Below, piece after piece: positions 14,849-62,329 of a DNA stretch of 64,000 nt. Source of the DNA: Patescibacteria group bacterium (lineage in GTDB: Bacteria > Patescibacteriota > Patescibacteriia > UBA10025 > JAHIVO01); NCBI GenBank assembly GCA_041660605.1, contig JBAZWB010000001.1, forward strand, positions 558,503 through 622,502, written 5' to 3'. The translations under genes and the position numbers were made by a program. The notes under the pieces were generated by a model. It was not told where the DNA came from, made no database searches, and saw only the letters and a list, made by a program, of their open reading frames with translations. The stretch's first letter is position 1. Every line of letters begins with the position of its first letter.

Positions 14849-14948
14849 GACCCCCTCGCTTTCGCTCGGGGCAAAATTTTTAGTAGCACTGGGCCCTCAC
14901 TATGCTCGGGGCAGTTTTAGGTCCTTCGCTACGCTCAGGGCGAACATG
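14849..14948. repeat. Three tandem imperfect about 30-bp GC-rich direct repeats, core CCYTCRCTNYGCTCRGGGC
   Basis: GACCCCCTCGCTTTCGCTCGGGGCA / GGGCCCTCACTATGCTCGGGGCA / GTCCTTCGCTACGCTCAGGGCGA. A fourth copy lies at 15346-15368 (TCCCTCACTTTGTTCGGGGCTCC). Confidence 0.45.
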
Positions 14949-14971
14949 CAAATCAAAAATTTGCATGTTCG
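14941..14971 (+). promoter_or_regulatory. Perfect inverted repeat (13-bp arms, 5-bp spacer) overlapping the promoter -35: candidate operator
   Basis: CGAACATGCAAAT-caaaa-ATTTGCATGTTCG. The right arm contains the TTGCAT -35 hexamer. Confidence 0.55.
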
Positions 14972-14995: not shown

Positions 14996-15280
14996 ATGAC
15001 AGTTATCTATGAAAAGCCACATGAAATAATTCGTGTCTTCGCGGATTTTCAAGTTCCGCACCTTGGAAAAGGTGCGGTGGAGCGTTTTGGGAATGTACGG
15101 CCGGTGGCTTTTTTTTGGGGCGGACGGCGGTATGAAGTAAAAAAAGTCAATCTGATTTTTCGCAAGCAAAGAGGAGACCGTTATGACATTTGCTTCGCGG
15201 TTTCCGATGAGGCCAACGCTTTTGTCTTATCATATAATCCGGAGAGCATGGAGTGGTGGCTGGAGGAAGTACGATGTTAA
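14996..15280 (+). CDS. Small hypothetical protein upstream of Y-family polymerase (candidate UmuD-analogue / YolD-like accessory subunit, unverified)
   Basis: 94 aa. No S24 peptidase Ser/Lys dyad. Positioned as the first gene of the operon with the UmuC-like polymerase. GC-rich like its partner. Confidence 0.45.
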   Translation: MTVIYEKPHEIIRVFADFQVPHLGKGAVERFGNVRPVAFFWGGRRYEVKKVNLIFRKQRGDRYDICFAVSDEANAFVLSYNPESMEWWLEEVRC

Positions 15281-15527: not shown

Positions 15528-16787
15528 ATGAAGCATAAGCGCATTATTTTACATTTTGATATGAATTCATATTTCGCCAGCGTGGAGCAGCAGGCTAACC
15601 CTTTTTTGCGGGGCAAACCGCTGGGAGTATGCTCAACCATGTCATACCGCGGCTGCATTATCGCTTCGTCAAAGGAAGCAAAAAAAGTCGGGATTAAAAC
15701 CGGCTGCCGCGTCAATGAAGCCCTGGAGATTTATAAAGATGTTATCCTGGTGGAAGTTGATCCGCCGAAGTATCGCTCTACTACTCAGCGGATTTTTTCC
15801 TTGTGTGCGGAATACACCGAGCAGATTGAGGCTTACTCCATTGATGAGGCGTTTCTGGATCTGACCGGCACGGTAAGTTCGCTTGAAGAGGCTGAAAAAA
15901 TCGCCAGGGAGATCCAGCTGCGCATTAAAAATGAAATAGGCGAGTGGCTAGGATGTTCAATGGGCATAGCGCCGACGCGCTGGCTGGCTAAATTTGGCAG
16001 CGACACCGCGCCTAAGGGTGGCATTGTTTTATTGGCCAGAGAAAATTTGCATCAGTATTTAAAAGGCCGCGACGTGCAGGAGGCCTGGGGGATTGCCGGA
16101 GCCATGGCCAGCCGCTTGGCAGAGTGCGGTATCTATACTCTTGACCAGCTGGCAGATTATCCGGTGCAGAACCTGATTTCCGTCATGGGCATCCAGGGAT
16201 ATTATTTATGGGCCAACGTGAATGGGATGGAACTGTCCGGCCTGGAGGTGAAGCGGCCGCCTAAGACCATCGGGCATTCGCATGTCCTGAAAAAGCGCAG
16301 TACCGACGCCAAGTTCAATCAGGCAGTGATTATGCGTTTGGCTGAGCGGACGGGCCGGCGCCTGCGCGACCAAGGCCTTGAAGCCCATGGCATCTATTGG
16401 GCTGTACAGTTTGACGACCGCGAAGGGCTCCATGGCAGCAAAAGGCTGGGCTATCCCATGCTGACTACCAGCCAGATCTTTCATTTTGTCTGGCAGACAG
16501 TGGCGCCGGCGGTGGCCAGGAACAAGCCGGGGTTTTTTGCCCTGGGTCTTTTCGGCTTGCGGCCGCAGGTGAACCAACTGTCGCTTTTTAGCGGTAAAAA
16601 AAGGCTGTCGCCGGAATTGTCGCGGGCTTTGGACGAGATAAATAATAAATACGGCGAAGAAACGGTGGTTCAGGGGCCATTGATAAATCTTGACGGCAGG
16701 CATGTGCCTGACCGCGTCGGGTTCAGAAAAACGATGGAAGCGGAGTTCAGCGGTATTGGCAATGAATACATCAGTGAAAGTGACTAG
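15528..16787 (+). CDS. Y-family DNA polymerase (UmuC/PolV-like translesion polymerase)
   Basis: 419 aa. ILHFDMNSYFASVEQ catalytic N-terminus. YRGCIIASSKEAK and SIDEAFLDLTG motifs resemble UmuC more than DinB. GC content far above the genome background. Confidence 0.85.
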   Translation: MKHKRIILHFDMNSYFASVEQQANPFLRGKPLGVCSTMSYRGCIIASSKEAKKVGIKTGCRVNEALEIYKDVILVEVDPPKYRSTTQRIFSLCAEYTEQIEAYSIDEAFLDLTGTVSSLEEAEKIAREIQLRIKNEIGEWLGCSMGIAPTRWLAKFGSDTAPKGGIVLLARENLHQYLKGRDVQEAWGIAGAMASRLAECGIYTLDQLADYPVQNLISVMGIQGYYLWANVNGMELSGLEVKRPPKTIGHSHVLKKRSTDAKFNQAVIMRLAERTGRRLRDQGLEAHGIYWAVQFDDREGLHGSKRLGYPMLTTSQIFHFVWQTVAPAVARNKPGFFALGLFGLRPQVNQLSLFSGKKRLSPELSRALDEINNKYGEETVVQGPLINLDGRHVPDRVGFRKTMEAEFSGIGNEYISESD

Positions 16788-18733: not shown

Positions 18734-19390
18734 TCATTTGTACAGTTTAATAATTTCAGCTGATTCATTTCTAAACGAATTGACTAATGGTGAAACTTGA
18801 TACATCTGCATCTGGTCATCCGGAAATGGTTTTAATATTTCCAAGGCTACCTCCAGCTGAGCGCTATTGTCTAGCCAAAGCTGCTCATGCTTTGGCGATA
18901 ATATTACCGGCATGCGATCATGCAGTTCGCTGACCATCTGATTCGCCTTAGTAGTGATAATAGAAAACGTGGGGATGGAAAAGCCCTCCTTGTTTTTATA
19001 AAATTCCCAGATGCCGGCAAAGGCAAATGGCTGTTTGCTTTTCAGCATTATTCGATAGGGGATTTTAACATCGTTTTTTCTTTTCCATTCAAAAAAACTG
19101 TCTGCCAGTACCAGGCAACGACGGTTTTTTATGGCATTGCGAAATGACGGTTTTTCAGCTAATGATTCTGCTCTGGCATTGATCAAGCCGCGGCTTTTCT
19201 TATTTTTCATCCAGACGGGCATTAATCCCCATTGCGCCGGTATTATTTCCCTAGGATTACTATTTAAAATTACCGGTAGTTTTTGCGATGGTGCGGCGTT
19301 AAAATGCCTCTTGATGGGCAATTTAAAATGCGCCTGGAACCTATCTTCCAGGATATCGTCTTTTGAAAAAAATGAATACCGTCCGCACAT
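18734..19390 (-). CDS. yedK: SOS response-associated peptidase (SRAP/YedK/HMCES family abasic-site processing protein)
   Basis: 218 aa. Begins MCGRYSFF, with the catalytic Cys2 of the SRAP family. Confidence 0.8.
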   Translation of the reverse strand: MCGRYSFFSKDDILEDRFQAHFKLPIKRHFNAAPSQKLPVILNSNPREIIPAQWGLMPVWMKNKKSRGLINARAESLAEKPSFRNAIKNRRCLVLADSFFEWKRKNDVKIPYRIMLKSKQPFAFAGIWEFYKNKEGFSIPTFSIITTKANQMVSELHDRMPVILSPKHEQLWLDNSAQLEVALEILKPFPDDQMQMYQVSPLVNSFRNESAEIIKLYK

Positions 19391-26591: not shown

Positions 26592-28265
26592 ATGGTTTTC
26601 TTGATAAAAAATTATAAAGTCCTGCATTTTGAGGATGATGATAAGTTGTCAGATATATATAGAAAGGCATTTATCAGAGCAGGCCTTAAATACTGGCGCA
26701 TAAAGAATCCAAAAAAAAATTTTATTGAGCAGGTAGTTAATATCAAGCCGGGAATTATTTTGATGGATACCAGCCTGCCTGGGCAGGACGGGTTTTCTTT
26801 GGCTAAAATACTGCAAAAACACAAGCAAACAAGCAAAATACCCATAGTTGGGCTGTCTGATGTAGAAAGGTCCGTTGGCGTCAGATGGGCGCTGAATCTG
26901 GGTATGTATGATTATTGGATGCATGATATACGACGGCCTGAGAAAATCGCGCAGAAAATATATAAAATTCTAAATCCTGCGCCGTATCCAGACCGTGATT
27001 CATTGATAAGCGTGGGTTGGCTGGCGAAAAAGATAAAATTATTTTTTAAGCATCATCAGGCAATATGGCATTATGCATTAGTCATACTGTTCATGATGTG
27101 CGGACCTGCGATAATTTATTTTAATAATATTTTTATTAAAACGGCCGATGATTTTATTACAAAACTGCCAACCAGACTGAGTGTAGAGTTGCATGCAGTA
27201 AATTTTAGCTGGCAATACCAGGGAGAAAAATTTATCATAGAAAAAACACTGTATGGCAGAATCGACGAATTTTATAAAAACAGTGACTTGAAATTTTTTG
27301 GAGAAAATGATGCTCTTGACGAATACTACAAGTTTTTTTCAACTCAGTTGTCTGCAGGTGGCGACAATACTATTAATGATTTTTCTGAACAAATAATTAA
27401 ACAGGGGAATGAAAGAAATCTTTCTGAGGATCAGCTAGTCGAATTATCAGTCGGTTTTGTTCAGTCTATACCTTTTGATGAAGAAAAAAAGGAGGCTATC
27501 TTGAATGCTCCGGAGGTGTCTGATGGTGATAATCAGTCTGTCCTGGCGGCCGTAAAATCTTCCTGGCCCAGATTTCCTTATGAAACATTGTATGACAATA
27601 AAGGCGTATGCACAGACAAAACATTTTTGGCTATTGCTTTGCTGCAGCAGCTTGGATACGGTACGGCAATTTTTGATTATCAGACTCACATAGCTCCAGC
27701 GGTAAAATGCACTGACACATACTCAAATTTTAATTCAGGCTACTGCATCGCAGAAGTGACCTCGAATGGTTTTTTTATCGGGGAATTACCAGCCATAATG
27801 GATTCTTATGACCAAACCGTGAAAAAAGACGTTACTTATTTTTCCCAAAAAATGTGGAATATCGGCTTAACCGAGGAAATCATCCAAAAACCCAATATAG
27901 TGGCAATCAACGATGGGAAAAGCTATGAAAGAATTTCACAGCATGCTCCGATTTTTTCCGAAATGAATAAAATCGAAAATGAGTTCAACGATTTAAACGC
28001 AAAAATCAGTTTATTGCTGGAAAAAATAAATGCTCTCGAAAAAGAGGTCAAAACGTATAAAGATACAGTTAATGAAATATCAAAAAAACTGCAGACGGAC
28101 AATAGTTTGCAGTTATATTATCAATATGAAGAGGCGGCCAATAAATATAATAGCGCTTTTGAAAAACACGAAGGCGGTATAGCCGAATATGAGGCCTCCC
28201 TGATCAGCCAAAATAAACTGATTACAGAGTATCAGCAGTTATTAATGCAATTGGAAATAAATTGA
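26592..28265 (+). CDS. Receiver (REC)-like domain / TM / transglutaminase-like Cys-protease domain / coiled-coil fusion protein
   Basis: 557 aa. N-terminal HFEDDD...IILMDTSLPGQDG...IPIVGLSDV is CheY-like. One TM (about residues 150-175). GVCTDKTFLAIALLQQLGYGTAIF...THIAPAV is a transglutaminase-core-like Cys/His region. C-terminal heptad-rich about 100 aa. Confidence 0.45.
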   Translation: MVFLIKNYKVLHFEDDDKLSDIYRKAFIRAGLKYWRIKNPKKNFIEQVVNIKPGIILMDTSLPGQDGFSLAKILQKHKQTSKIPIVGLSDVERSVGVRWALNLGMYDYWMHDIRRPEKIAQKIYKILNPAPYPDRDSLISVGWLAKKIKLFFKHHQAIWHYALVILFMMCGPAIIYFNNIFIKTADDFITKLPTRLSVELHAVNFSWQYQGEKFIIEKTLYGRIDEFYKNSDLKFFGENDALDEYYKFFSTQLSAGGDNTINDFSEQIIKQGNERNLSEDQLVELSVGFVQSIPFDEEKKEAILNAPEVSDGDNQSVLAAVKSSWPRFPYETLYDNKGVCTDKTFLAIALLQQLGYGTAIFDYQTHIAPAVKCTDTYSNFNSGYCIAEVTSNGFFIGELPAIMDSYDQTVKKDVTYFSQKMWNIGLTEEIIQKPNIVAINDGKSYERISQHAPIFSEMNKIENEFNDLNAKISLLLEKINALEKEVKTYKDTVNEISKKLQTDNSLQLYYQYEEAANKYNSAFEKHEGGIAEYEASLISQNKLITEYQQLLMQLEIN

Positions 28266-31460: not shown

Positions 31461-31500
31461 AATATGAATCATTGAGCACTACGTTTTTAATAAAGACTAA

Positions 31501-31758
31501 CTATTTTTTTAGCCAAAGCGCTTTGAATAACGACAAGGTAAGGGTGGAAAGCAGAAACGCCACTGCCGGTACAATGGCATTGAGCCAGGGATGCGGCAGT
31601 TTGGCAAACAGGAAAAATACCACGATTACCAGGTAAGTCAGAATTAAAATAATAACTTTCCTGATCCAACTGGTTTCCCAAGCTTTATCAGCTTCTACAC
31701 GCCGGTTGCGGGCGTTAATTTCATTGATTTGATTTTGCAGATCGTCGATAGTAGTCAT
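31501..31758 (-). CDS. Small membrane protein (N-terminal amphipathic/coiled segment + 2 TM)
   Basis: 85 aa. Confidence 0.4.
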   Translation of the reverse strand: MTTIDDLQNQINEINARNRRVEADKAWETSWIRKVIILILTYLVIVVFFLFAKLPHPWLNAIVPAVAFLLSTLTLSLFKALWLKK

Positions 31759-31761
31759 AAT

Positions 31762-32226
31762 TTATGGTTTTAATAAAGGTTCCATTGTAGTATTGTGCTG
31801 AAGTGTTTGTTTTCTGTGATAAGTGTACCATTCACTGATGATAATGTAGGCAACGGAAACAATCCATTCAAGTAGCGGCCATTGAAGTAATAAGTATAAT
31901 AATATAACCGAAAAAATAAAAAATACAAAGGGAAGCGCCCAAGTGCTCATATGTATCGCTAGGGATGGCTGTTGTCGTTGAAGGCTAGTAACATTGTGCC
32001 AAATTGTATTCACTATAATACCCAGGACGGCAACGGCAATCATCAATAGTGTGCCAATCCAGAATATTCCGTTATTGTTTAGTACGCCGTTTGTGCCGAA
32101 TAAGTAGAGAAATACCGGTGCCGATAACGCAAGATATAGCACGCGCAGTAAGATTGTAAAAACAATATTAAGATTTTTAATACGCGATCGCAACTGTTCA
32201 GGTGAAATATTTTTAGTTTCGTTCAT
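31762..32226 (-). CDS. 4-TM membrane protein
   Basis: 154 aa. Confidence 0.4.
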   Translation of the reverse strand: MNETKNISPEQLRSRIKNLNIVFTILLRVLYLALSAPVFLYLFGTNGVLNNNGIFWIGTLLMIAVAVLGIIVNTIWHNVTSLQRQQPSLAIHMSTWALPFVFFIFSVILLYLLLQWPLLEWIVSVAYIIISEWYTYHRKQTLQHNTTMEPLLKP

Positions 32227-32303
32227 GGCGATGTAAATTACAATTAATTATTTTTTTGGCTTATTTTTGCCACTGGAAGAAAGTAGCTTTTAGGAGGTAT
32301 ATG

Positions 32304-32945
32304 TTATTTAAGTAAATTAATAATCTCCAAATGATCTTTAATTATATAATCCGGATGAAAAGCTTGCAATGAATCCAGCGAATAAAATTTTTCATGTTCT
32401 GGAGGATGATAAAGAGCTACCTGGCATTTCATCGATTTAGCGGCTTGAATGTCATTTGCGGCGTCTCCGATTACCAAGACATTTACCGGATCAACGCCGG
32501 CTTTATGGGCAAGAGTTTGAAAAATTATCGGTTTTTCAAACGGGCAATCGTCATAGCTTAAAATTACCTTGAAATATTGCTTAAGTTTAAAACGTTCCAA
32601 CGCTAGTTCAAAATTTGTTTGGCGCGCCAAAGAGCCAAGGCAAATGGTATAACCTTGATTTGTAAGTGCTTTTAAAGTCTCAATAATGTTTTTGTGTAAT
32701 TCAGCCTTTCTAAATCCTAGTCGTGCGCCTTCGTGATAATAATTTGAAAATGCCTCAACGTCTTTTATGCCAAAATTATGAGCGGCCACTTCATTCACAA
32801 TATTAAAGCACTTGCTGATAATTTCCTCGTCAGATGCTTCCAAGCCAAATTTGGCTATCGTTTTTCTGTATGCTTTTAGATGCCAGGGCAGAGTATCGAG
32901 TATTGTGCCGTCAAAATCGTAGATAATTGCTTGCGGTTTTTTCAT
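32304..32945 (-). CDS. HAD-IA family hydrolase (beta-phosphoglucomutase/phosphatase-like)
   Basis: 213 aa. IIYDFDGTILDT motif I. Downstream S/T, K and DD motifs. Confidence 0.75.
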   Translation of the reverse strand: MKKPQAIIYDFDGTILDTLPWHLKAYRKTIAKFGLEASDEEIISKCFNIVNEVAAHNFGIKDVEAFSNYYHEGARLGFRKAELHKNIIETLKALTNQGYTICLGSLARQTNFELALERFKLKQYFKVILSYDDCPFEKPIIFQTLAHKAGVDPVNVLVIGDAANDIQAAKSMKCQVALYHPPEHEKFYSLDSLQAFHPDYIIKDHLEIINLLK

Positions 32946-33002
32946 ACGTCAATAGATATTATTTTAAGAATATTTATATTTATTAATTTATTATATTAGG
33001 TA

Positions 33003-33031
33003 TTGACAATTATTAAGAGAAATGATAGATT
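33003..33031 (+). promoter_or_regulatory. Promoter TTGACA-17-TAGATT
   Basis: TTGACA 33003-33008. Followed by a GGAGG SD at 33061 and ATG at 33072. Confidence 0.45.
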
Positions 33032-33071
33032 ATGTCGATATATTGAACCTTATATTAGTTTGGAGGAAAAA

Positions 33072-33452
33072 ATGCCAGAAACGATCGAGCAATGCTGTTC
33101 AGTACCAAAATGGCATTGGTATAACATCATGAGTGATCTTGACGTGCAAGGGGGTTTGCCTGGTGTAGTCATCGATCCACTTTCGGTTGAAGAGTGTGGT
33201 TGTGGCGGTACGACCACGGCTGGTACAAAGTTTTACATAACCTGGGTCAAGGACAAGTTTCTCCTTTTGAGCGTATCTCAGCAGGAGCAGGCGCTTGTCG
33301 ACGCATTCGCCAAAGTCGTTGGGTATCAACCATTTTGCCGGTATATCTCTACTAAGGGTGGTTTGCTCACGATTGAGTGGGACAAGCAGGATCCGACTGG
33401 TCGGTATTCTGAACTTGAAACTGAGGGTGTAAAAGATCTGCAGTGTCTTTAA
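33072..33452 (+). CDS. Hypothetical protein (126 aa from SD-preceded ATG; the ORF track starts at 33003)
   Basis: Strong SD GGAGGaaaaaATG. Cys motifs CCS and CGCGG. No recognised domain. Confidence 0.5.
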   Translation: MPETIEQCCSVPKWHWYNIMSDLDVQGGLPGVVIDPLSVEECGCGGTTTAGTKFYITWVKDKFLLLSVSQQEQALVDAFAKVVGYQPFCRYISTKGGLLTIEWDKQDPTGRYSELETEGVKDLQCL

Positions 33453-33473
33453 TAACTCTCACTAAGAAGGTTT

Positions 33474-33507
33474 GATCGTCCTGATGGGTATCGGGACGAT
33501 CTTTTTT
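33474..33507 (+). terminator. Rho-independent terminator
   Basis: GATCGTCC-12nt-GGACGATC followed by TTTTTT. Confidence 0.6.
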
Positions 33508-33511
33508 ATAA

Positions 33512-34570
33512 TTAAAACCCAAACCCGCGTTCCAATTTTTCATACCCGCCTCCAGGCAAAGAGCGGTAATAGCCTGAACCCTGCGGACCGCCGTCCCACT
33601 GGGAATTAAGCGGGGCTTCGTAATGCTCGCCGGTGGTTGGTGAATATACATTTTCATAACCCATGATCGCCTCCGTCCATTTATCCGACAGCGATACCTC
33701 GGGATTATCAGCACTATCAGAAGGGTCTGGCGTAGAAACGTCAACGCTGGAAGTTACCGGCCGCAGCTGTGAAACGCACCGGATGGTTAAAGCAACCGAA
33801 AAGGGGAGTGCGCCGCTAGAATCCCATTTATCGTTTGGCGTGTCCGCCATATATACTGACACCACATACGTGGTTGGGTCACTAAAATTATATGTCTTAT
33901 AAATAATCGCTCCTTGCCTGCCGGTTGAAGTAGTGAAATCGCGCTGGATAAAACCCTCGTAAATATCTTTTGGCTCACCAAGCGTAAAACCGCCGCTGGT
34001 AAAAGAACCGGTAAACGCATAGCTCAGCCAAGCGGTTAAAAACGATTCAGCGTCCGGATACATATATTTATACACCACGGCAATGCCCCAACCGGCGTGT
34101 TGGGATTTATCCGGCGAATACAGGTCTGTGCCGGTGCTTTCCGCGTTGCCGGTAAATGACCAATCTTCCGGCGCCAGTGCCTGGCAATGACCGGTTTGTT
34201 TTTCAATCAATTGAACAGCCGTATCATTTATTGTTTTGGCGGCGATTATGACATTCTGCTGATTTGAATTAACTGCTGTGTTAATTACAGTTTGATTCGT
34301 GTTGCCGTTGGTTTGCACGACTACCTGGCTGGCGTTAGTATTGCCGTTAACATTAGTATTTTGATTGGCAATAGTATTATTTACAACCGTAATATCTGAG
34401 TTTGCATTACTATTGGCGACTACGATAGATTTGTTTGATTCATTTGAATTTTTATTTGTTTTCATAAGCACAACTACGACGACAGCCAGTCCGATAATTA
34501 TAATTGCCATTACCAGTAAAATGATTTTAATGTTCTTTGGTGAATTTTTGATCGGGTTTTGATCTGGCAT
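33512..34570 (-). CDS. Membrane-anchored protein with Asn/Thr-rich low-complexity linker and C-terminal globular domain
   Basis: 352 aa. N-terminal TM. An N/T/V-rich stretch of about 90 aa. Confidence 0.45.
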   Translation of the reverse strand: MPDQNPIKNSPKNIKIILLVMAIIIIGLAVVVVVLMKTNKNSNESNKSIVVANSNANSDITVVNNTIANQNTNVNGNTNASQVVVQTNGNTNQTVINTAVNSNQQNVIIAAKTINDTAVQLIEKQTGHCQALAPEDWSFTGNAESTGTDLYSPDKSQHAGWGIAVVYKYMYPDAESFLTAWLSYAFTGSFTSGGFTLGEPKDIYEGFIQRDFTTSTGRQGAIIYKTYNFSDPTTYVVSVYMADTPNDKWDSSGALPFSVALTIRCVSQLRPVTSSVDVSTPDPSDSADNPEVSLSDKWTEAIMGYENVYSPTTGEHYEAPLNSQWDGGPQGSGYYRSLPGGGYEKLERGFGF

Positions 34571-34579
34571 AAATATTAA

Positions 34580-35353
34580 TTAATATTTTAGCGTATTTTT
34601 AATTATTTCAATTAATTTATCGTGTATTATTCCATTGGAGATTAAACCGCCTTTTGTCGGACCATCGTATTTTTGATCATTGCCGAACATATCGGTAACT
34701 TTACCTCCGGCTTCTTCAATAATGATTTTTTGCGCGGCAATGTCCCAGGGCGTGTTATGCGGAAATATATTGGCTACCGCTTCGCCACTGGCCACCAGAG
34801 CGCCTAAATAAGAAGTAGAGCCGGTTTGCATATTCATGCCCAATGAAATCAATTTAGTAACGGTGCCTGTCAGATCGTAGGTTGAATTATTCCAGACACA
34901 GATGCCGATTAAATTTCTGGAAATTGCCGCAACTTTTGAAACATGGATTTGTTCGTCATTCAAAAAAGCCCCTTTATTTTTTTCGGCAAAATAAAGACGG
35001 TCTGTAAATGGATTATAAATTACTCCTAATATTGGCTGGCCGTTCCTTAACAATGCAAGAGTGAAACAACAAACAGTCATTCCCGCAGAAAACGGTATGG
35101 TGCCGTCCAGAGGATCGCAAATCCAGACATACTCCGCTTTTTCGCTAAAACTTCCGCCTTCCTCACCGATAAAACCGTGGTTGGGAAATTCTTTCTTAAT
35201 GCTGTTTAATACCAAAAGATTTACTGTCTTGTCCACAATAGTCACAGGGGATTCATCGTGCTTGATTTCAATCTCGTGTTTGGTATTAAAATGCTGAGAA
35301 ATTATTTTACCGGCTTGCTCGGCCAGAGAAAGAGAAAAAGATTTGGGAGTCAT
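34580..35353 (-). CDS. Inositol monophosphatase / FIG family phosphatase (SuhB/CysQ-like)
   Basis: 257 aa. GEEGG and WICDPLDGT metal-binding motifs. Confidence 0.8.
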   Translation of the reverse strand: MTPKSFSLSLAEQAGKIISQHFNTKHEIEIKHDESPVTIVDKTVNLLVLNSIKKEFPNHGFIGEEGGSFSEKAEYVWICDPLDGTIPFSAGMTVCCFTLALLRNGQPILGVIYNPFTDRLYFAEKNKGAFLNDEQIHVSKVAAISRNLIGICVWNNSTYDLTGTVTKLISLGMNMQTGSTSYLGALVASGEAVANIFPHNTPWDIAAQKIIIEEAGGKVTDMFGNDQKYDGPTKGGLISNGIIHDKLIEIIKNTLKY

Positions 35354-35436
35354 AGTTTATTTAAGTTTAATATTTGTTTGAATATTCTTACGTGTCCGTC
35401 GAAGTAAAGCATAGGTGGAAGAATATTAGAATGTGA

Positions 35437-35468
35437 TATAGGAACGTTCGTCCGAACGTTCGAATGTT
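35437..35468 (-). promoter_or_regulatory. Conserved palindromic element A (tandem CGAACGTTCG-like sites), candidate operator/promoter module
   Basis: ATAGGAACGTTCGTCCGAACGTTCGAATGTTA, about 85 nt upstream of the IMPase-like gene start. Near-identical copy at 37488-37521. Confidence 0.45.
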
Positions 35469-35486
35469 ATTTTAAAGCGAATAATA

Positions 35487-36230
35487 TTATTTCTTTCTTG
35501 CCATAATTAAAATAGTTTTAATGGGAATTCGGATGGTTTTAGGATATTGATTAAGTTTTTGATGCAATTCAGCCAATGCCTGCTTCTTTCGTTTTTTAGA
35601 TAACGCCAGATACCAGGAAAATGATGTTTGCATGCTGATATAATCCGCTCTGCCCATTCGTATAGTTCGTCGGTACTCTTTGGTTGTTGCGTCAGTAAAA
35701 TTATGATGCCGTTTTAATCGTTGTATTATCTCTATTGCTTTTCCACCTTTGGCTGAGGAGTATTTTTTGTGCAGTTTCATGGCCCATTTGCCAATACCTT
35801 TATTATAATAATTAAAGTTCCAGAAGAGCGCCAGTACACCGCCGGGTTTGAGCAAAGCGCGGGTTTTGGTGAATTGAATGCCGGGCTTGATCCAATGAAA
35901 CGATTGCGCTGAATAAATAAGCTTAAAGTGGTTTTTCGGTAGTTTAATATTCTCAAATTGGCCGATTATGTACTTCATCCGCTGGTAGCGCTTTAATTTC
36001 TCTTTCGCGATACTGACCAGCTCCCGGCTAATGTCATTCGCAATTAAATGATTGCTGTAACGCACGAACGGTAGTGTTGCTTTTCCTGTACCAATCCCAA
36101 TTTCCAAAACCGGATCATTTTTTGTCAATTTACTGTATCTAATAATATCGCGAAAAAGGGGATCAGGGTACCCAAGCCGAGCCTTATCATATTGTTTTGG
36201 TATAGTGCTGAATGTTTCCTTGAGTTTCAC
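35487..36230 (-). CDS. Class I SAM-dependent methyltransferase
   Basis: 247 aa. VLEIGIGTGKATLPF glycine-rich SAM motif I, and acidic motif II. Confidence 0.75.
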   Translation of the reverse strand: MKLKETFSTIPKQYDKARLGYPDPLFRDIIRYSKLTKNDPVLEIGIGTGKATLPFVRYSNHLIANDISRELVSIAKEKLKRYQRMKYIIGQFENIKLPKNHFKLIYSAQSFHWIKPGIQFTKTRALLKPGGVLALFWNFNYYNKGIGKWAMKLHKKYSSAKGGKAIEIIQRLKRHHNFTDATTKEYRRTIRMGRADYISMQTSFSWYLALSKKRKKQALAELHQKLNQYPKTIRIPIKTILIMARKK

Positions 36231-36231
36231 G

Positions 36232-36939
36232 TTAAATTATTTTATTTGTTTTTGGTGAATGTAGTAATATTTTGTTTGTAATCAGACTTAGAGCGTATGT
36301 GACTAAAGATGCGCCTATTAACATATTTATTATAAGATGTAGCCATGCATGGTTAATTATAATCAAAGTTATCGTTTCTGCCATACTAGTATTGTTTTTT
36401 TGTAATTCTAAAAAATAATCTGATACTCTGGGAGTAAGCACTAAAAAAAGAATTAAAAATAAAACTATAAATCCCACAACTACAGTTTTATTTACACTCC
36501 ATTTAAATTTATCCTTTAGCCAGATAAAAAAGCCGACACATAAAGGTAGCCAGCCTATCTGTATAAAGAAATAAAGGATGATCTTATCTACATCATGAAA
36601 AAAAGTTTCCACACTATCAGCAATGCCCGGGATAATATACGACACAATTATAAGTATTGTTCCGGTTACCCAGTAACCTATAAAAATACCACAACTTAAC
36701 ATAACTAATGAATCAAATAAAGTATGTGTTTTTGAAAATCTTAAATAAATTGTTAAGGTTATAATTCCTAAAATCAATCCAATTAAATGGGGTAAAAAAG
36801 TAATTAAATTTGCATTTTGAATAAATAAGGTAAAGGTTCCTATAGCAATATATATTGAGGTAAATCCAAGCAATATGCCAAGGCAAATGTTACTAATATT
36901 CCGTTTTAAGTTGCTAAAATTTTCATTTGCTAATTGCAT
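36232..36939 (-). CDS. Polytopic membrane protein, unknown
   Basis: 235 aa, about 7 TM. Confidence 0.4.
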   Translation of the reverse strand: MQLANENFSNLKRNISNICLGILLGFTSIYIAIGTFTLFIQNANLITFLPHLIGLILGIITLTIYLRFSKTHTLFDSLVMLSCGIFIGYWVTGTILIIVSYIIPGIADSVETFFHDVDKIILYFFIQIGWLPLCVGFFIWLKDKFKWSVNKTVVVGFIVLFLILFLVLTPRVSDYFLELQKNNTSMAETITLIIINHAWLHLIINMLIGASLVTYALSLITNKILLHSPKTNKII

Positions 36940-36951
36940 ATTATTTATGAA

Positions 36952-37470
36952 TTATATATTTAATAATTTATTTGCCTGCAATAAAAATTCCAAGTCCCGT
37001 GCAAGTATAAAATTTCCATCATAATCAATCGGTTTATCGTTCTGCAGTAATTTTATTGCTTGGGGTAAGGGAGTCCACACTACTTCAAATTTACCATCTT
37101 TTTCCCATTTTGAAAGTTTTAGTTGTTTTTGTTCACCGACTGTTTTAACGATGTAGCAATATGATCGTCGATGTTCCTTTCGTTTGTCTTTGTATTCATC
37201 AATATATCCCAATTCAGAAGTAATTTTAACGTCATAGCCAACTTCTTCAAGACATTCGCGCAAGCAAGCTTGTTCGGATGTTTCTCCAGGTTCGATAGTA
37301 CCACCAGGAAGCTTGTGAATTTGATAAACGCCGGTTTTCATCAGCGCAACGTTATTTTGTATATCAAATATAACAGCACGGCTAGATTCTTGAAATGTAT
37401 AATTATTGCGTTTAATATCCTTAGCGTTTGGAAATAGATCTGAATCAGTTATTGTTTTTAAATGGGTCAT
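36952..37470 (-). CDS. NUDIX hydrolase
   Basis: 172 aa. Nudix box GGTIEPGETSEQACLRECLEEVGY. Confidence 0.8.
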   Translation of the reverse strand: MTHLKTITDSDLFPNAKDIKRNNYTFQESSRAVIFDIQNNVALMKTGVYQIHKLPGGTIEPGETSEQACLRECLEEVGYDVKITSELGYIDEYKDKRKEHRRSYCYIVKTVGEQKQLKLSKWEKDGKFEVVWTPLPQAIKLLQNDKPIDYDGNFILARDLEFLLQANKLLNI

Positions 37471-37487
37471 TTATGGTAGTTAATGTC

Positions 37488-37521
37488 ATAGGAACGTTCG
37501 CACGAACGTTCGAACGTGTTA
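37488..37521 (-). promoter_or_regulatory. Conserved palindromic element B (tandem CGAACGTTCG sites), candidate operator/promoter module
   Basis: ATAGGAACGTTCGCACGAACGTTCGAACGTGTTA, 18-50 nt upstream of the NUDIX start. It fills the 58-bp gap between the HD gene stop and the NUDIX start. Confidence 0.45.
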
Positions 37522-37528
37522 AATCATT

Positions 37529-38677
37529 TTAAAAATTTTTCTCAAGCGCTTTATAAAGCACTCCAAAATCAACCCCGCAGATTATTTTCCCAGCGTACAT
37601 ATGTGTCAGACTGATCCGCGCCTCGGATAATTTCTTGTTTGTTATGCCGTTTTGCAAAGCTAAATACGCTTCGAGGTAAGCAGCCAAGTGATCAATGGCT
37701 TTGATTAGATCGCCGTTTCGAAGAATGCGCCCGTTTTTTTCTTGTACCGTGAATTCATTTACCGTGAAGTATTTGATATCCTCGGCAATATTCGGAGGCA
37801 AGAGGGGATAGACCCGTCGCTTCATTTCATCATGTTCAAATTTTTTGACAAGATCTGACATTTTACCGACTTGTTTGATAGGCCGGATAACATCTCTGGT
37901 TAATGCTTCCGGAAGGTCATGGAACAAAGCGGTAAAGAAATTGTTAAAACAAACATCAACTTCGTCATTCCTGCTTTTGAGGAGATAGGTGATAATGGCC
38001 ACGATCAACATGTGGCCAAGGACTGATGTTTCCGGCACACGGTAAGTGTGGCTCCAACGTATCTGATACCGGAGCTGTCCGCACAGCTGGATGAAACGTC
38101 TGAGCTTTGGATCATTTTCAACTTCTTTTGCTGATTTGAGATGGCTGGTAGCTTTTTTAATGCTGGCCGTCAGATCCTGCTCAATCTCGGCGATGTCATA
38201 TCCGTCCGGGTTTGTCCGCTGGATAACGACAAATTCTTCCCAAGAAGCCAGGTAGTTAGCCGCGTCCATGATGCGGTGGTAGATCGTCGGAGCGTTTATC
38301 TTATCCAGGAGGTATTTTTCGTAGGCATCCAGGAATTTTTTATCAATAAAATATTGGTCTAATTCTTCTTTTGAATAATTAATCAGTTCTTTGTACGTTT
38401 TTACGTCTTTCTCTATCCGGTGGAATAATTGAGGTTTGAAATCCGTCAGGGTTAATCTTTGGAGAAACTCAAACACCCCGGCCTCAATCAGTTTGTGCCA
38501 GTCAAATGATTTTACCGGGCTCATTTTGCCGATCAAATAGGCGATAATGAATTTCTGGGCCTGCTTGTCTATTTCGCGGAAATCCACCGCGCGCACCTGG
38601 TCATTCCAGCGCTTGAGAAACGCGGCGTTGTAGAGGTAGAGGAGGAATTTATAATTAATAGTTTTGAGTTGAGGCAT
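37529..38677 (-). CDS. HD-domain phosphohydrolase (YfbR-like 5'-deoxynucleotidase core) with about 200-aa N-terminal extension
   Basis: 382 aa. SVLGHMLIVAIITYLL ... ALFHDLPEALTRDVIRPIK matches the YfbR H...HD...D pattern. Confidence 0.55.
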   Translation of the reverse strand: MPQLKTINYKFLLYLYNAAFLKRWNDQVRAVDFREIDKQAQKFIIAYLIGKMSPVKSFDWHKLIEAGVFEFLQRLTLTDFKPQLFHRIEKDVKTYKELINYSKEELDQYFIDKKFLDAYEKYLLDKINAPTIYHRIMDAANYLASWEEFVVIQRTNPDGYDIAEIEQDLTASIKKATSHLKSAKEVENDPKLRRFIQLCGQLRYQIRWSHTYRVPETSVLGHMLIVAIITYLLKSRNDEVDVCFNNFFTALFHDLPEALTRDVIRPIKQVGKMSDLVKKFEHDEMKRRVYPLLPPNIAEDIKYFTVNEFTVQEKNGRILRNGDLIKAIDHLAAYLEAYLALQNGITNKKLSEARISLTHMYAGKIICGVDFGVLYKALEKNF

Positions 38678-38748
38678 TTAAATAGTATTTATTATGAGGA
38701 AATAAATATGCCCAAGCAATGGGAGATAGGGAAGGTTATGTGGGCATG

Positions 38749-39402
38749 TTAATTGGAAAAATCAATTATGCTAATTATTGGATTATTTTTCGTTCCATCC
38801 CAATTAATTTCAATATCTGCTTTCAAAAATGATCCACGTTTTTCATTTAATTCTAACACTATGTACGTCTTCCCTGGATTAAGTGTAGACCATTTGGATA
38901 TTTCTCTCCCTGCAGATAATGCAAGCTGTAGCATAGGTGATTCATTTTTTGGCATAATTAAGTTAGCAATATCAAGACTAACTTCCTGTTGGGGGTATAT
39001 GTTTCTATAAAGTCGATTTGAATGTAACTGACTATGTGTCCAAAAAAGTGGTAAAGGAATATATTTAGGCTGTTTCCCATCAGAATCAATTTTTTTTATA
39101 ATATTTGCTTCAACGTCACTCGCTGAGATATAGCTCGTATTTTTTATTGATAATCTAACTACTTTAAGCCAAATTTGTTGCTCGATAGTATTACTACCAA
39201 ATGGTCTTAATTTCGGTTTGTGTAATGTTTTAAACCATTCAGAAGATATTGCAACAACAACCGCACTAATCCCAAGAAAAATGGTTCCAACTGCTGTCCA
39301 CTCTTGAGAGGTCCATTGAATAATGTATTTTAATCCTATAACAAGGTAGATTAAAATTACACCAATTATTAGAACAGATAATATTCCTTTATTCCACGAC
39401 AT
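38749..39402 (-). CDS. 2-TM membrane protein with C-terminal soluble domain, unknown (integrase-adjacent)
   Basis: 217 aa. Confidence 0.4.
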   Translation of the reverse strand: MSWNKGILSVLIIGVILIYLVIGLKYIIQWTSQEWTAVGTIFLGISAVVVAISSEWFKTLHKPKLRPFGSNTIEQQIWLKVVRLSIKNTSYISASDVEANIIKKIDSDGKQPKYIPLPLFWTHSQLHSNRLYRNIYPQQEVSLDIANLIMPKNESPMLQLALSAGREISKWSTLNPGKTYIVLELNEKRGSFLKADIEINWDGTKNNPIISIIDFSN

Positions 39403-39415
39403 ATATTTTTAACTA

Positions 39416-40348
39416 TTATTTTTCCAACGGATGATATTTGCGATGCGATCGTTCAGCATATTTATCAGAAGCATTAACGTAACGAGTAGTAGTATCTAAT
39501 GATTCATGGCCAAGCAGTATTTGAATGGCGGCGGGGCTTGCTCCATTTTCTGCCAAGTAAGTGGCAAAACCGTGGCGCAGGCTATGAGCCGAAGTGGGCA
39601 CATTGATTCTTAAACGCTCGCGGTATTGTTTTATTTTCATTTGCAGATAATTATTTGAGACCCGGGCGTCTCCGGAAGCGGCATTGGCCCCGCGATAGGG
39701 GATAAAGAGCGCAGGATGGTTGTCGCCTCTTGAACGCAGATATTTTTCCAAAATTAATTTAGCTCTGTCAGTCAGATAAACAAACCTCTGCTTGCGTCCT
39801 TTGCCCTCGATGAATATCTTGCCGGAATTGTCTATCTGGTTCTTATTTAATTTTATCAGTTCTGAAATGCGCATGCCAGTGGCAAACAGGACTTCCAACA
39901 TAGCCCGGTTGCGCAGAGCCACATCTTTATTTTTTTCAAATTCGCTGGGGGATTCAATCAGCCTGACAATGTCAATTAATTCGGCTACCTGCGGATGCTT
40001 CTTGATAGTCTTGGTTAATCTGACCATTTGAGGCGAAATTGGCGTGGGATAGTCATTATCTATTAAATACTTCAGAAAAGACCGTAAAACCGACAACATC
40101 CGGTTAATAGAGTAAAAATTGAGCTTTTTAAGGCCTTTTTGGTCTTGGGCTGTCATTCTATCACGTGAGGTAAGGAAAGCCTTATACAGCTCAATATCGC
40201 GCTTCTGGAGGGCCTTGAAAGTCTTTTTAGCCTCATTATCAATATAGTGCTCAAAGACCTGCAGATCCCGTTCGTAGTTATAGATAGTCTCGTCGGAGTA
40301 GTTGTTTGTTTTAATATTTAATAAGAAATCGTCTAAGTGTGGAAGCAT
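39416..40348 (-). CDS. Tyrosine site-specific recombinase (XerC/XerD/phage integrase family)
   Basis: 310 aa. R...AHSLRHGFAT...LLGHESLDTTTRYV catalytic R-H-R-Y motifs. Confidence 0.8.
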   Translation of the reverse strand: MLPHLDDFLLNIKTNNYSDETIYNYERDLQVFEHYIDNEAKKTFKALQKRDIELYKAFLTSRDRMTAQDQKGLKKLNFYSINRMLSVLRSFLKYLIDNDYPTPISPQMVRLTKTIKKHPQVAELIDIVRLIESPSEFEKNKDVALRNRAMLEVLFATGMRISELIKLNKNQIDNSGKIFIEGKGRKQRFVYLTDRAKLILEKYLRSRGDNHPALFIPYRGANAASGDARVSNNYLQMKIKQYRERLRINVPTSAHSLRHGFATYLAENGASPAAIQILLGHESLDTTTRYVNASDKYAERSHRKYHPLEK

Positions 40349-40556
40349 ATATTATTAATTATCGGCTAAGCCATACATATTGTTAATAGGGTAGTTTCTG
40401 GCTATTTTAACGGAGTGTAAGGGTTATTATACCTAGTTATACCTTTAGCATAACATGGGCGTTTTTATAGGTCAATTCAATTATATAATAAAAGGTCTTC
40501 CGGAGTGAATCAGAAGACCTTATCAACTTATTTAATCTTGTAGTAGGTCGTAGGAA

Positions 40557-53935: not shown

Positions 53936-54997
53936 TTAATCAGTTAATTTATCTTCATTAGCGGAGGAGGACAAAATTTCCTGTAAATTTTCCAAATCAT
54001 CAAGAACAATTCCCGTGCCTCTGACCACGGCGGTCAAGGGATCGTCAGTTACATGAACAGGAATTTTCGTCTCTTGTTTTATCAGGGTATCCAATCCTTT
54101 CAATAAAGCGCCTCCACCTGACAGTACAATCCCCCGTTCAAAAATATCTGCCACTAATTCCGGTGGTGTAATTTCTATAGTGGATTTGATATTTTCAACT
54201 ATCATACGAAGTGACCTGGAAATAGCTTCCCTGATTTGATTTCCATTAATAATTACTTCTTTTGGCAAGCCCGAGATCAAATCTCTGCCTCGCATTGTTG
54301 ACTCAAACGGATCATCTGAAGCTAATGCTGAGCCAATCTTTATTTTTATGTTTTCTGCCGTACGTTCTCCAAGTAGTAAGTTGAAATGATCACGAGCATA
54401 TTGAATAATATTTTGATCAAATTCATCGCCTGCTATCCTTAATGATTTCCAGGTAATCACGCCACCAAGGGAAATTACGGCGATTTCCGTTGTACCTCCG
54501 CCAATATCAACTATCATATTTCCTGCTGCATCTTGTATCGGTAATCTGGCACCGATAGCTGCGGCCATCGGTTCTTCTATCAGAAAGGCTTCCCTGGCGC
54601 CGGCGTTCAGACAGGCATCTTCGACCGCTTTTCTTTCGACTTCCGTAACGCCAAGAGGCAAACCAATAACAATGCGCGGGCGTGGAAGGATAGAAAAACT
54701 CTCTTTGTGTACCTTATCAATGAAGTATTTCAGCATTTTTTCTGTAACTTCAAAATCAGAAATCACTCCATCCACCAAAGGTTTAGAAGCGACGATATGC
54801 GCCGGCGTCTTGCCAATCATTTTCCTTGCTTCCTCGCCAACTGCGAGAATCTGATCATTGCGAATGTTGATGGCCACAACTGATGGTTCATTTATTACGA
54901 TTCCCTTATCTTTTACATAGACAAGCGTATTAGCAGTCCCGAGATCAATACCCATGTCTTTTGAAAATTTTCCAAAAAAGTTGTTAAAAAGTGACAC
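53936..54997 (-). CDS. mreB: Rod shape-determining protein MreB
   Basis: MGIDLGTANTLVYVKDKGIVINEPSVVA actin-fold phosphate-1 motif. Confidence 0.9.
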   Translation of the reverse strand: MSLFNNFFGKFSKDMGIDLGTANTLVYVKDKGIVINEPSVVAINIRNDQILAVGEEARKMIGKTPAHIVASKPLVDGVISDFEVTEKMLKYFIDKVHKESFSILPRPRIVIGLPLGVTEVERKAVEDACLNAGAREAFLIEEPMAAAIGARLPIQDAAGNMIVDIGGGTTEIAVISLGGVITWKSLRIAGDEFDQNIIQYARDHFNLLLGERTAENIKIKIGSALASDDPFESTMRGRDLISGLPKEVIINGNQIREAISRSLRMIVENIKSTIEITPPELVADIFERGIVLSGGGALLKGLDTLIKQETKIPVHVTDDPLTAVVRGTGIVLDDLENLQEILSSSANEDKLTD

Positions 54998-61321: not shown

Positions 61322-62329
61322 TTATTTGGTCGATAAGATACTTTTTTTATATGATTCTAAATTTTCCAGAGCGACACCAGTTCCCTTGGCTACACATAAA
61401 TGAGCGTCATCAGCCAGAAAAGCCGGAATACCAGTAGCTTGCGATAATAATTTGTCCATGTTCTTAAGCAATGACGTACCACCGGATAAGACCATTCCTT
61501 TGTCCATTATATCAGCGGATAATTCCGGAGGAGTTTCCTGCAAAACGGATTTTACAGCCTGGATAATGCCGGCTAATTCATCCTGAATAGCTTCTGTCAC
61601 GTCATCGCTTTCTACGGTTACTATTTTTGGCAAACCCTGCACGGAATCACGCCCTCTGATTTCTGTAAATAATTTTTCTTCCAACGGCAAGGCCGAGCCA
61701 ACGCTTATTTTTAAATCTTCCGCAGTCCTTTCGCCAATATTTAAATTATATTTTTTTCTGATAAATTCTTGTATGGCCGCGTCTAGTTTATTCCCCCCAA
61801 TTCTTACCGATGCGTTTGCCACGATGCCACCAAGCGATATTATCGCCACTTCCGAGGTGCCACCGCCCATATCTACTATCATATGGCCTGAAGCCGAACC
61901 AATGGGTATATTTGCGCCGATAGCGGCGGCAATAGGCTCTTTTATTATATAAGCCGCTTTAGCGCCTGCCTGAAGGGTCGCTTCAATGACTGCGCGCCTC
62001 TCGGTCGAGGTAATGCCAGCCGGCACTGCAATCATAACCTCCGGCCGGAAAAAGCGTACGCCCCCTAGCGCCTTATTGATAAAATATTTAATCATAGCCT
62101 GGGTAGTTTTGTAATCTGCGATCACGCCGTCTTTCAGCGGTCTTGAAGCAACTATAGTATCGGGAGTGCGGCCTAACATTTCCTTGGCTTCATTACCTAC
62201 GGCCATGACTTTTTTGTCAATCAAAGAGATAGCCACTACCGAAGGCTCATTAATTACAATGCCTCGCCCAGGTATATAAACTAAGGAGTATGTTGTGCCT
62301 AGATCTATTCCAAGTTTTCTGGAAAACAT
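61322..62329 (-). CDS. MreB-like actin homologue (second paralog)
   Basis: LGIDLGTTYSLVYIPGRGIVINEPSVVA. About 50 percent identity by eye to the mreB at 53936-54997. Confidence 0.8.
   Translation of the reverse strand: MFSRKLGIDLGTTYSLVYIPGRGIVINEPSVVAISLIDKKVMAVGNEAKEMLGRTPDTIVASRPLKDGVIADYKTTQAMIKYFINKALGGVRFFRPEVMIAVPAGITSTERRAVIEATLQAGAKAAYIIKEPIAAAIGANIPIGSASGHMIVDMGGGTSEVAIISLGGIVANASVRIGGNKLDAAIQEFIRKKYNLNIGERTAEDLKISVGSALPLEEKLFTEIRGRDSVQGLPKIVTVESDDVTEAIQDELAGIIQAVKSVLQETPPELSADIMDKGMVLSGGTSLLKNMDKLLSQATGIPAFLADDAHLCVAKGTGVALENLESYKKSILSTK

Follow-up and report, generated by a model that had tools for sequence, protein, structure and literature searches.

Two near-identical three-unit elements in a Patescibacteria genome as candidate ArsR-type operators

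A 64,000-nt stretch of a Patescibacteria metagenome-assembled genome (MAG; contig JBAZWB010000001.1, positions 558,503 to 622,502; hereafter the window) contains two near-identical short elements, A and B, 2050 bp apart. Element B precedes a group of genes beginning with a NUDIX hydrolase and element A precedes genes beginning with an inositol-monophosphatase-family (IMPase) phosphatase, which raises the question of what, if anything, reads these sequences. To our knowledge, almost nothing is known about transcriptional control in the Patescibacteria (Candidate Phyla Radiation, CPR), and a full-text search of the literature found no description of the element motif or of a CPR ArsR regulon. 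Because the same element brackets ArsR genes in other genomes and tracks the recognition helix of the encoded proteins, A and B are read here as probable operators of the ArsR/SmtB type, at a probability of about 0.6.

The two elements share the anatomy of a ~31-bp three-repeat site. In its canonical form an ATAGG flank is followed by AACGTTCG-NN-CGAACGTT-CGAACGTT, such that an 8-mer is present three times, once inverted and, after a 2-bp spacer, twice in direct orientation. Units 1 and 2, including their GG/CC flank, constitute a 10-2-10 inverted repeat in both window copies and a 13-2-13 repeat in a metagenomic copy (contig L142, see below). Elements A and B are identical at 27 of 30 positions in register, and the likeness is gone ~5–10 nt outside either edge (total ≤~40 nt); the TTCCTAT flank, taken at first for the probable site of a -10, includes CCTAT/ATAGG, which belongs to the conserved outer portion of the element. 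The original prediction, made from the letters of the window, described two near-identical elements 2 kb apart; both are present and its coordinates for B were right, but A starts one base higher, at 35438. It also described two perfect 10-bp palindromes separated by 3 nt in each element, and this description needs correction: the first 10-mer is GGAACGTTCG, just one perfect CGAACGTTCG is present in each, the palindrome that occurs twice per element is the 8-mer GAACGTTC, and the 10-mers are 2 nt apart (3 nt only if taken as 9-mers).

All four occurrences of the 8-mer GAACGTTC in the window are within A and B (0.44 expected; at least four in 0 of 100 shuffles), and both elements are inside the intergenic DNA that makes up ~7% of the window. 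Chance is ruled out as the source of this pattern, and the scatter through coding regions that had been named as a check on the idea is not seen within the window. A weight-matrix scan identified no further copies of the element in the 64-kb window or in 10 kb of additional left flank. The hexamer AACGTT is itself scarce, with 8 occurrences in the whole window against 16.5 expected, four of the eight being within A and B; outside the elements it is ~four-fold under-represented, possibly through restriction avoidance or selection against spurious half-sites.

A metagenome scan with the CPR-specific form GGAACGTTCGNNCGAACGTTC returned 22 loci. The full element, ATAGGAACGTTCG-NN-CGAACGTTCGAACGTTA, is present in four low-GC contigs (L135, L138, L142 and L143). 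L135 and L143 have one copy directly upstream and another directly downstream of a 91-aa PF01022 (HTH_5/ArsR) gene, in the order EamA transporter, element, ArsR, element, 269-aa unknown protein, and element B matches these copies over 30 of 30 nt despite the unrelated neighboring genes. A canonical copy follows a truncated ArsR gene in L138 (739–1235), and L142 contains a perfectly symmetric variant, ATAGGAACGTTCGCACGAACGTTCCTAT, with an EamA gene on one side and, on the other, a different NUDIX gene whose ATG is 15 nt away. The L138 copy has an IS4/IS5-type transposase fragment (DUF4096) ~100 nt past it, suggesting that this locus has been disrupted by an insertion sequence. Matches in L136 are tandem repeats in apparently eukaryotic DNA and are unrelated.

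Loci found by way of the ArsR protein alone (L149, L150, L151, L152/L153 and L157–L159) have the two-copy arrangement in every case. As L153, L158 and L159 are duplicates of two of the others, the element flanks a 91–107 aa ArsR/SmtB-family gene on both sides in seven distinct contigs (L135, L143, L149, L150, L151, L152 and L157). Profile searches match the proteins at these loci to HlyU, the ArsR-family structure 6o8k, CzrA, CadC, SmtB, NolR and NmtR (E = 1e-14 to 1e-6), and the proteins flanked by the element are true ArsR/SmtB members; inspection by eye did not reveal the alpha3 CXC and alpha5 metal-site motifs in them, and they contain 0–1 Cys. In the longer contigs (L151, 6984–15150; L152, 6970–19757; L157, 1–3964) the ArsR gene is situated within a NiFe-hydrogenase cluster encoding Fer4_22, an FAD/NAD-binding subunit, EamA, ArsR, a 269–270 aa protein, HypC, the small and large subunits, and HypA. 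In these clusters the element has the 269-aa gene, which has no family match, as its downstream target throughout. The contigs with ArsR loci are probably also CPR, as judged from GC content, gene content and the names on weaker homologues. A more distant ArsR relative (P0141, 57% identical; L154, 500–1130, and L155) adjoins a HisKA_7TM protein, and its gene is flanked by a diverged inverted repeat, AACAC(G/A)TTAAC-N3-AATGTGTTAAT, with one copy upstream and two downstream; this repeat does not align confidently with the element and is omitted from all counts.

The sequence of the element varies with the regulator beside it. The copies in L150 have the form AACATTCG-CG-CGAATGTA-CGAATGT and those in L151, L152 and L157 the form AACATTCT-TA-AGAATGTT-AGAATG. 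In the variant copies the internal palindromes of 8 and 10 bp are gone, while the dyad centered on the 2-bp spacer and the direct third unit persist, which speaks against the 10-bp palindromes as independent sites, the form in which they were first described. In six variant copies the first position of the unit is A in 18 of 18 units, whereas the other copies have C there, and this difference goes with the recognition helix: SVSKHLQK is found with CGAA(C/T)GT units and S(A/C)SFHLLK with AGAATGT units, all three units being alike, a match that is a correlation only and comes from ~2–3 independent lineages. The operator type of P0136 was forecast from its helix ahead of retrieval, and both copies agree with it (GGAACATTCT-TA-AGAATGTT-AGA(A/T)TG).

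The arms of the dyad are complementary in 92% of cells (16 copies), with three positions altered on both sides (13 cells) and none on one side alone. Such two-sided changes keep the pairing and would also suit an element acting in RNA, in which the 8-bp GC/AU hairpin of units 1 and 2 would terminate or attenuate transcription between cistrons, mark a processing site, or stabilize the 3′ end of the upstream gene. Each element begins 7–17 nt past a stop codon, and the hairpin predicted on the gene strand has an energy of –10.4 to –11.8 kcal/mol (z about –2.1). However, the stem is not followed by a U tract on the gene strand either in the window or at the ArsR loci, no G-T (in RNA, G-U) intermediates occur among 144 cells, the element is found in both orientations relative to genes, and it has no Rfam match. 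The third unit has no pairing partner and shifts from C to A in the same way as the paired units and together with the recognition helix, so base pairing does not explain that shift. An RNA-level role is considered unlikely. A search for intrinsic terminators as such flags only the antisense strand of A, the gene (minus) strand tail being CCUAUGACAUU or CCUAUAUCACAUU. In two unrelated contigs (L130, 243–264; L132, 1452–1473) the core, as GGAACGTTCG-NN-CGAACGTTCC, is located between A and T runs (AAAAAGGAACG...CGTTCCTTTTTT) in a manner resembling a bidirectional intrinsic terminator, and from its sequence it looks as if the same core is usable as a plain hairpin elsewhere, a point on the side of the RNA explanation.

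The classical binding site of ArsR/SmtB proteins is an imperfect 12-2-12 inverted repeat that overlaps the start of a target gene or lies close to it, often beside the autoregulated repressor gene but also at targets far from that gene (PMC8790569). Both window copies have the corresponding x-2-x inverted repeat, the autoregulatory position beside an ArsR gene is seen at the ArsR loci and not in the window, and site sequence follows the recognition helix, as a correlation, for both helix classes and in all three units. The best-supported reading of the cognate repressor of A and B, judged from these features, is an ArsR-family protein of the SVSKHLQK class. A small (~91 aa) winged-helix protein would, as a dimer, straddle the dyad and make an auxiliary contact with the third unit; the occupied sites, in putative promoter positions, would block initiation or read-through into the NUDIX/membrane protein/methyltransferase and IMPase/352-aa units, which would thus be co-regulated, and a signal would release the repressor. 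The shared operator for one oligomeric repressor that was originally predicted gains support from the ArsR genes flanked in seven contigs and from the co-variation of the units with the helix.

The genes around A and B are all minus-strand and co-directional (Table 1). Read in the direction of these genes, element B starts 7 nt from the stop codon of the HD-domain gene and ends 17 nt from the NUDIX ATG, and element A starts 17 nt from the methyltransferase stop and ends 84 nt from the IMPase ATG. No Shine-Dalgarno sequence is visible before the NUDIX ATG. The IMPase and 352-aa genes are probably one transcription unit. The IMPase and NUDIX proteins are 100% identical to NCBI MFA6098422.1 and MFA6098425.1, from a Patescibacteria group bacterium MAG. 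Among the open reading frames (ORFs) of the window, nearly all of which were annotated with Pfam, there is no LexA, LacI, ArsR or other classical repressor, and no known RNA family (Rfam) or tRNA is present in the window. The HD protein has an extra N-terminal region of ~190 aa without a family match. Elsewhere in the window are two MreB/Mbl paralogues (53936–54997 and 61322–62329, minus strand), together with MreC and a PBP2-like transpeptidase in this genome, and a 557-aa protein (26592–28265) in which a response-regulator receiver domain is joined to a transglutaminase-like region.

Table 1. Coordinates of elements A and B, their parts, and selected genes in the window
Feature	Coordinates	Strand	Remarks
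Element B	37488–37521	+	ATAGGAACGTTCGCACGAACGTTCGAACGTGTTA; weight-matrix score 51.9 of 51.9
Element B, ATAGG flank	37488–37492		
Element B, unit 1 (inverted)	37493–37500		AACGTTCG
Element B, spacer	37501–37502		CA
Element B, unit 2	37503–37510		CGAACGTT
Element B, unit 3	37511–37518		CGAACGTG
Element B, tail			TTA
Element A	35438–35469	+	ATAGGAACGTTCGTCCGAACGTTCGAATGTTA; weight-matrix score 46.1
Element A, ATAGG flank	35438–35442		
Element A, unit 1 (inverted)	35443–35450		AACGTTCG
Element A, spacer	35451–35452		TC
Element A, unit 2	35453–35460		CGAACGTT
Element A, unit 3	35461–35468		CGAATGTT
Element A, last base	35469		A
94-aa ORF	14996–15280	+	
Y-family DNA polymerase	15528–16787	+	IMS domains
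SRAP (SOS-response-associated peptidase) gene	18734–19390	-	2 kb beyond the Y-family polymerase gene
352-aa gene	33512–34570	-	N-terminal membrane anchor, no family match; 9 nt after IMPase gene
IMPase-family phosphatase gene, 257 aa	34580–35353	-	First gene after element A
Class I S-adenosylmethionine-dependent methyltransferase gene, 247 aa	35487–36230	-	Last gene of the unit starting after B
Membrane protein gene, 235 aa	36232–36939	-	No family match; 12 nt after NUDIX gene
NUDIX hydrolase gene, 172 aa	36952–37470	-	First gene after element B
HD-domain gene, YfbR-like 5′-deoxynucleotidase family, 382 aa	37529–38677	-	Immediately upstream of element B
217-aa unknown protein	Between the XerC/D-like recombinase and HD genes	-	
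XerC/D-like (tyrosine) recombinase	39416–40348	-	~2 kb from element B

Several findings weigh against A and B being ArsR-type operators. phmmer and profile hidden Markov model searches of six-frame translations identified no ArsR-family ORF in the window or in the extra 10 kb, and the same searches for a cognate regulator in the translations of L156, L144 and L142 returned noise only. A profile search of the protein database gave 29 clusters (E 1e-13 or better), none of them on the 960449-bp contig of this MAG, the longest contig among these clusters being 81 kb, so the search showed no close family member there. The sites may be orphans here; alternatively, the regulator could be encoded on a different contig or have diverged beyond detection. 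A consensus scan gave no sigma-70-like promoter over A or B with at least 9 of 12 matches (promoter rules in CPR are not established). The nearest syntenic relative (L144; IMPase 63% identical) has neither the element nor the NUDIX/membrane protein/methyltransferase block, so the arrangement of A and B is lineage-specific. The unit 1-to-unit 3 direction of element B is that of the plus strand, opposite to the neighboring genes, and the window elements are thereby inverted relative to downstream genes as compared with the ArsR loci; a near-symmetric operator tolerates inversion, with the third unit then on the far side. The two-sided changes in the dyad are also expected from hairpin selection or from quasi-palindrome correction. 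Finally, the same 20-nt core is present upstream of LacI-family genes in Chloroflexota.

The comparison with L144 also bears on the possibility that A and B have no regulatory role here and are relics or boundaries of an acquired block, or a mobile repeat resembling repetitive extragenic palindromic (REP) sequences or miniature inverted-repeat transposable elements. The three genes missing from L144 lie exactly between the two copies, which are direct repeats, no cognate regulator was found, and the L138 copy adjoins the transposase fragment noted above. Neutral relics are expected to have decayed, and the perfect units 1 and 2 in both copies and the 30/30-nt identity of B with the L135 and L143 copies therefore count against a relic. 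Further, a repeat present just twice in 74 kb is unlike REP families, inspection of the surroundings gave no target-site duplications, terminal inverted repeats or RAYT/transposase genes, and no viral contig matches the element, such that this explanation appears improbable. IMPase homologues at 51–63% identity (L144, L146 and L147/L148) have no element in any case. The recombinase-to-IMPase stretch as a whole is rearranged between the window (31500–40350) and L144 (3900–10800), which has a dCMP deaminase, a 270-aa HD protein and an alpha/beta hydrolase in it.

The Chloroflexota core was found by scanning species-representative genomes with GAACGTTCGNNCGAACGTTC, which gave at least 120 loci (L002–L121), almost all in Anaerolineae/Chloroflexota. 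Among the matches listed, to which all counts in this paragraph refer, none is in a CPR genome, no ArsR gene is nearby at the Chloroflexota loci, and at 102 of 120 loci a LacI-family gene follows the core at a distance of 8–83 nt. The motif reads (T/G/A)GCGAACGTTCG-NN-CGAACGTTCGC, with a 20-nt core, GAACGTTCG-NN-CGAACGTTC, identical to that of the CPR element. Its arms extend outward with variable but complementary sequence, by at least 4 nt in 49% and at least 6 nt in 25%; the longest extension is 13 nt, giving perfect palindromes of up to ~46–50 bp. We know of no description of this palindrome. It resembles the CPR element in its core, in a similar TAGG...CCTA outer flank and in its position directly upstream of a regulator gene, but it has a GCGAACG rather than a GGAACG flank, usually no third unit, one copy per locus, variably extended arms, and a LacI-family neighbor.

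These loci show that, going by its sequence, the core is able to serve as a conserved regulatory site, and because it is found before LacI-family genes the binder is not identifiable from sequence alone. Elements A and B could then be operators of another factor that shares the core, either LacI-family as in Chloroflexota or another winged-helix protein. Each GAACGTTC does have a central CG, as in LacI-type sites, and no ArsR gene was found in the sequence of this MAG. Yet the window has no LacI homologue or other classical regulator, and its copies are the full CPR-type element of the ArsR loci, having the ATAGG flank and the third unit and reading GGAACG in place of GCGAACG, so this is a decidedly unlikely alternative. 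A further suggestion sets A and B beside the core found before LacI genes in more than 100 species of Chloroflexota. On this view A and B would be true orphans in a reduced CPR genome, their regulator lost or never encoded, and the core an old cruciform- or hairpin-type DNA element of two possibly related phyla, recognized by more than one protein family instead of serving simply as a repressor site; this is very doubtful.

The window also encodes proteins of DNA damage tolerance and recombination. The Cheo box, CGAAC-N4-GTTCG, is the LexA operator of Firmicutes and some other phyla, and Xer-type strand exchange needs a 6–8 bp central region. The CGAAC/GTTCG pentamers of A and B equal Cheo half-sites, a Y-family polymerase and an SRAP gene are present, and a tyrosine recombinase is located 2 kb away, all of which would suit an SOS box or a dif- or attC-like recombination site. 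However, CGAAC...GTTCG matches in the window have only N0 (A and B) or N21 (14941–14971) spacing, no window ORF scanned has an S24/LexA domain, and neither the polymerase nor the SRAP gene is preceded by the element. With 2 bp, the central region falls short of what Xer-type strand exchange needs, and the ArsR loci with the element have no recombinase. Both forms of this idea are extremely unlikely, and the link to LexA drawn in the original prediction fails on the spacing and the missing domain. The element was also rejected as a dif or attC site on other grounds: it is ~31 bp (attC, 55–140 bp), GTTRRRY fits B (GTTAAAT) but not A, L135 or L138, and the ArsR loci are syntenic rather than cassette-like.

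The N21 match is a 31-bp palindrome, CGAACATGCAAATCAAAAATTTGCATGTTCG, at 14941–14971 (13-5-13: CGAACATGCAAAT-N5-ATTTGCATGTTCG), situated just upstream of the 94-aa ORF and the Y-family polymerase. It is a separate candidate operator of different sequence, unrelated to A and B apart from its CGAAC ends, which are all that is left of the half-sites it was thought to share with them.

If A and B are operators of the ArsR/SmtB type, as is most likely, they are switches of an ordinary sort that had not been described in this little-known phylum. A concrete regulator-operator pair is then at hand, the regulator being an ArsR-family protein of 91 aa and the operator the three-unit site. The pair has a rule of specificity, K/Q or F/L in the helix corresponding to CG or AG at the start of each unit; such co-variation of operator and helix is readable directly from metagenomes. 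Through the pair, the NUDIX and phosphatase genes of these organisms would be linked to a NiFe-hydrogenase cluster. A regulon of nucleotide-acting enzymes, as first proposed, is hinted at by the different NUDIX gene after the L142 element, but the targets elsewhere are the regulator itself and the 269-aa unknown protein. Should the regulator be truly absent from this MAG, A and B would represent retention of operators without their repressor.

Three known systems invite comparison. The Cheo box shares the palindromic arrangement of CGAAC/GTTCG pentamers, but here the spacing is zero, the site is tandem, there is no association with LexA or SOS genes, and the associated protein elsewhere is of the ArsR family. 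REP and other intergenic palindromes and intrinsic terminators are similar in being short GC-containing palindromes past stop codons among co-directional genes, with a stable hairpin; in contrast, A and B have no U tract and only two copies, the sequence is identical across unrelated contigs, and the element has an unpaired third unit that co-varies and is tied to a gene for a DNA-binding protein. The closest are the ArsR/SmtB 12-2-12 operators (SmtB, ZiaR, CzrA, AztR/AzuR). The present element differs from these in having arms that are 10–13 bp long and of another sequence, (ATAGG)AACGTTCG, a direct third unit after the dyad in most copies, associated proteins without evident alpha3 CXC/alpha5 motifs by eye, and no regulator gene in the window. 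It shares with them an imperfect inverted repeat with a 2-bp gap between its arms and a position near a gene start; such operators usually lie by an autoregulated repressor gene but also at remote targets, and are bound by small winged-helix dimers (PMC8790569), the class of protein to which the element-linked matches to HlyU, CzrA, CadC, SmtB and NmtR structures point.

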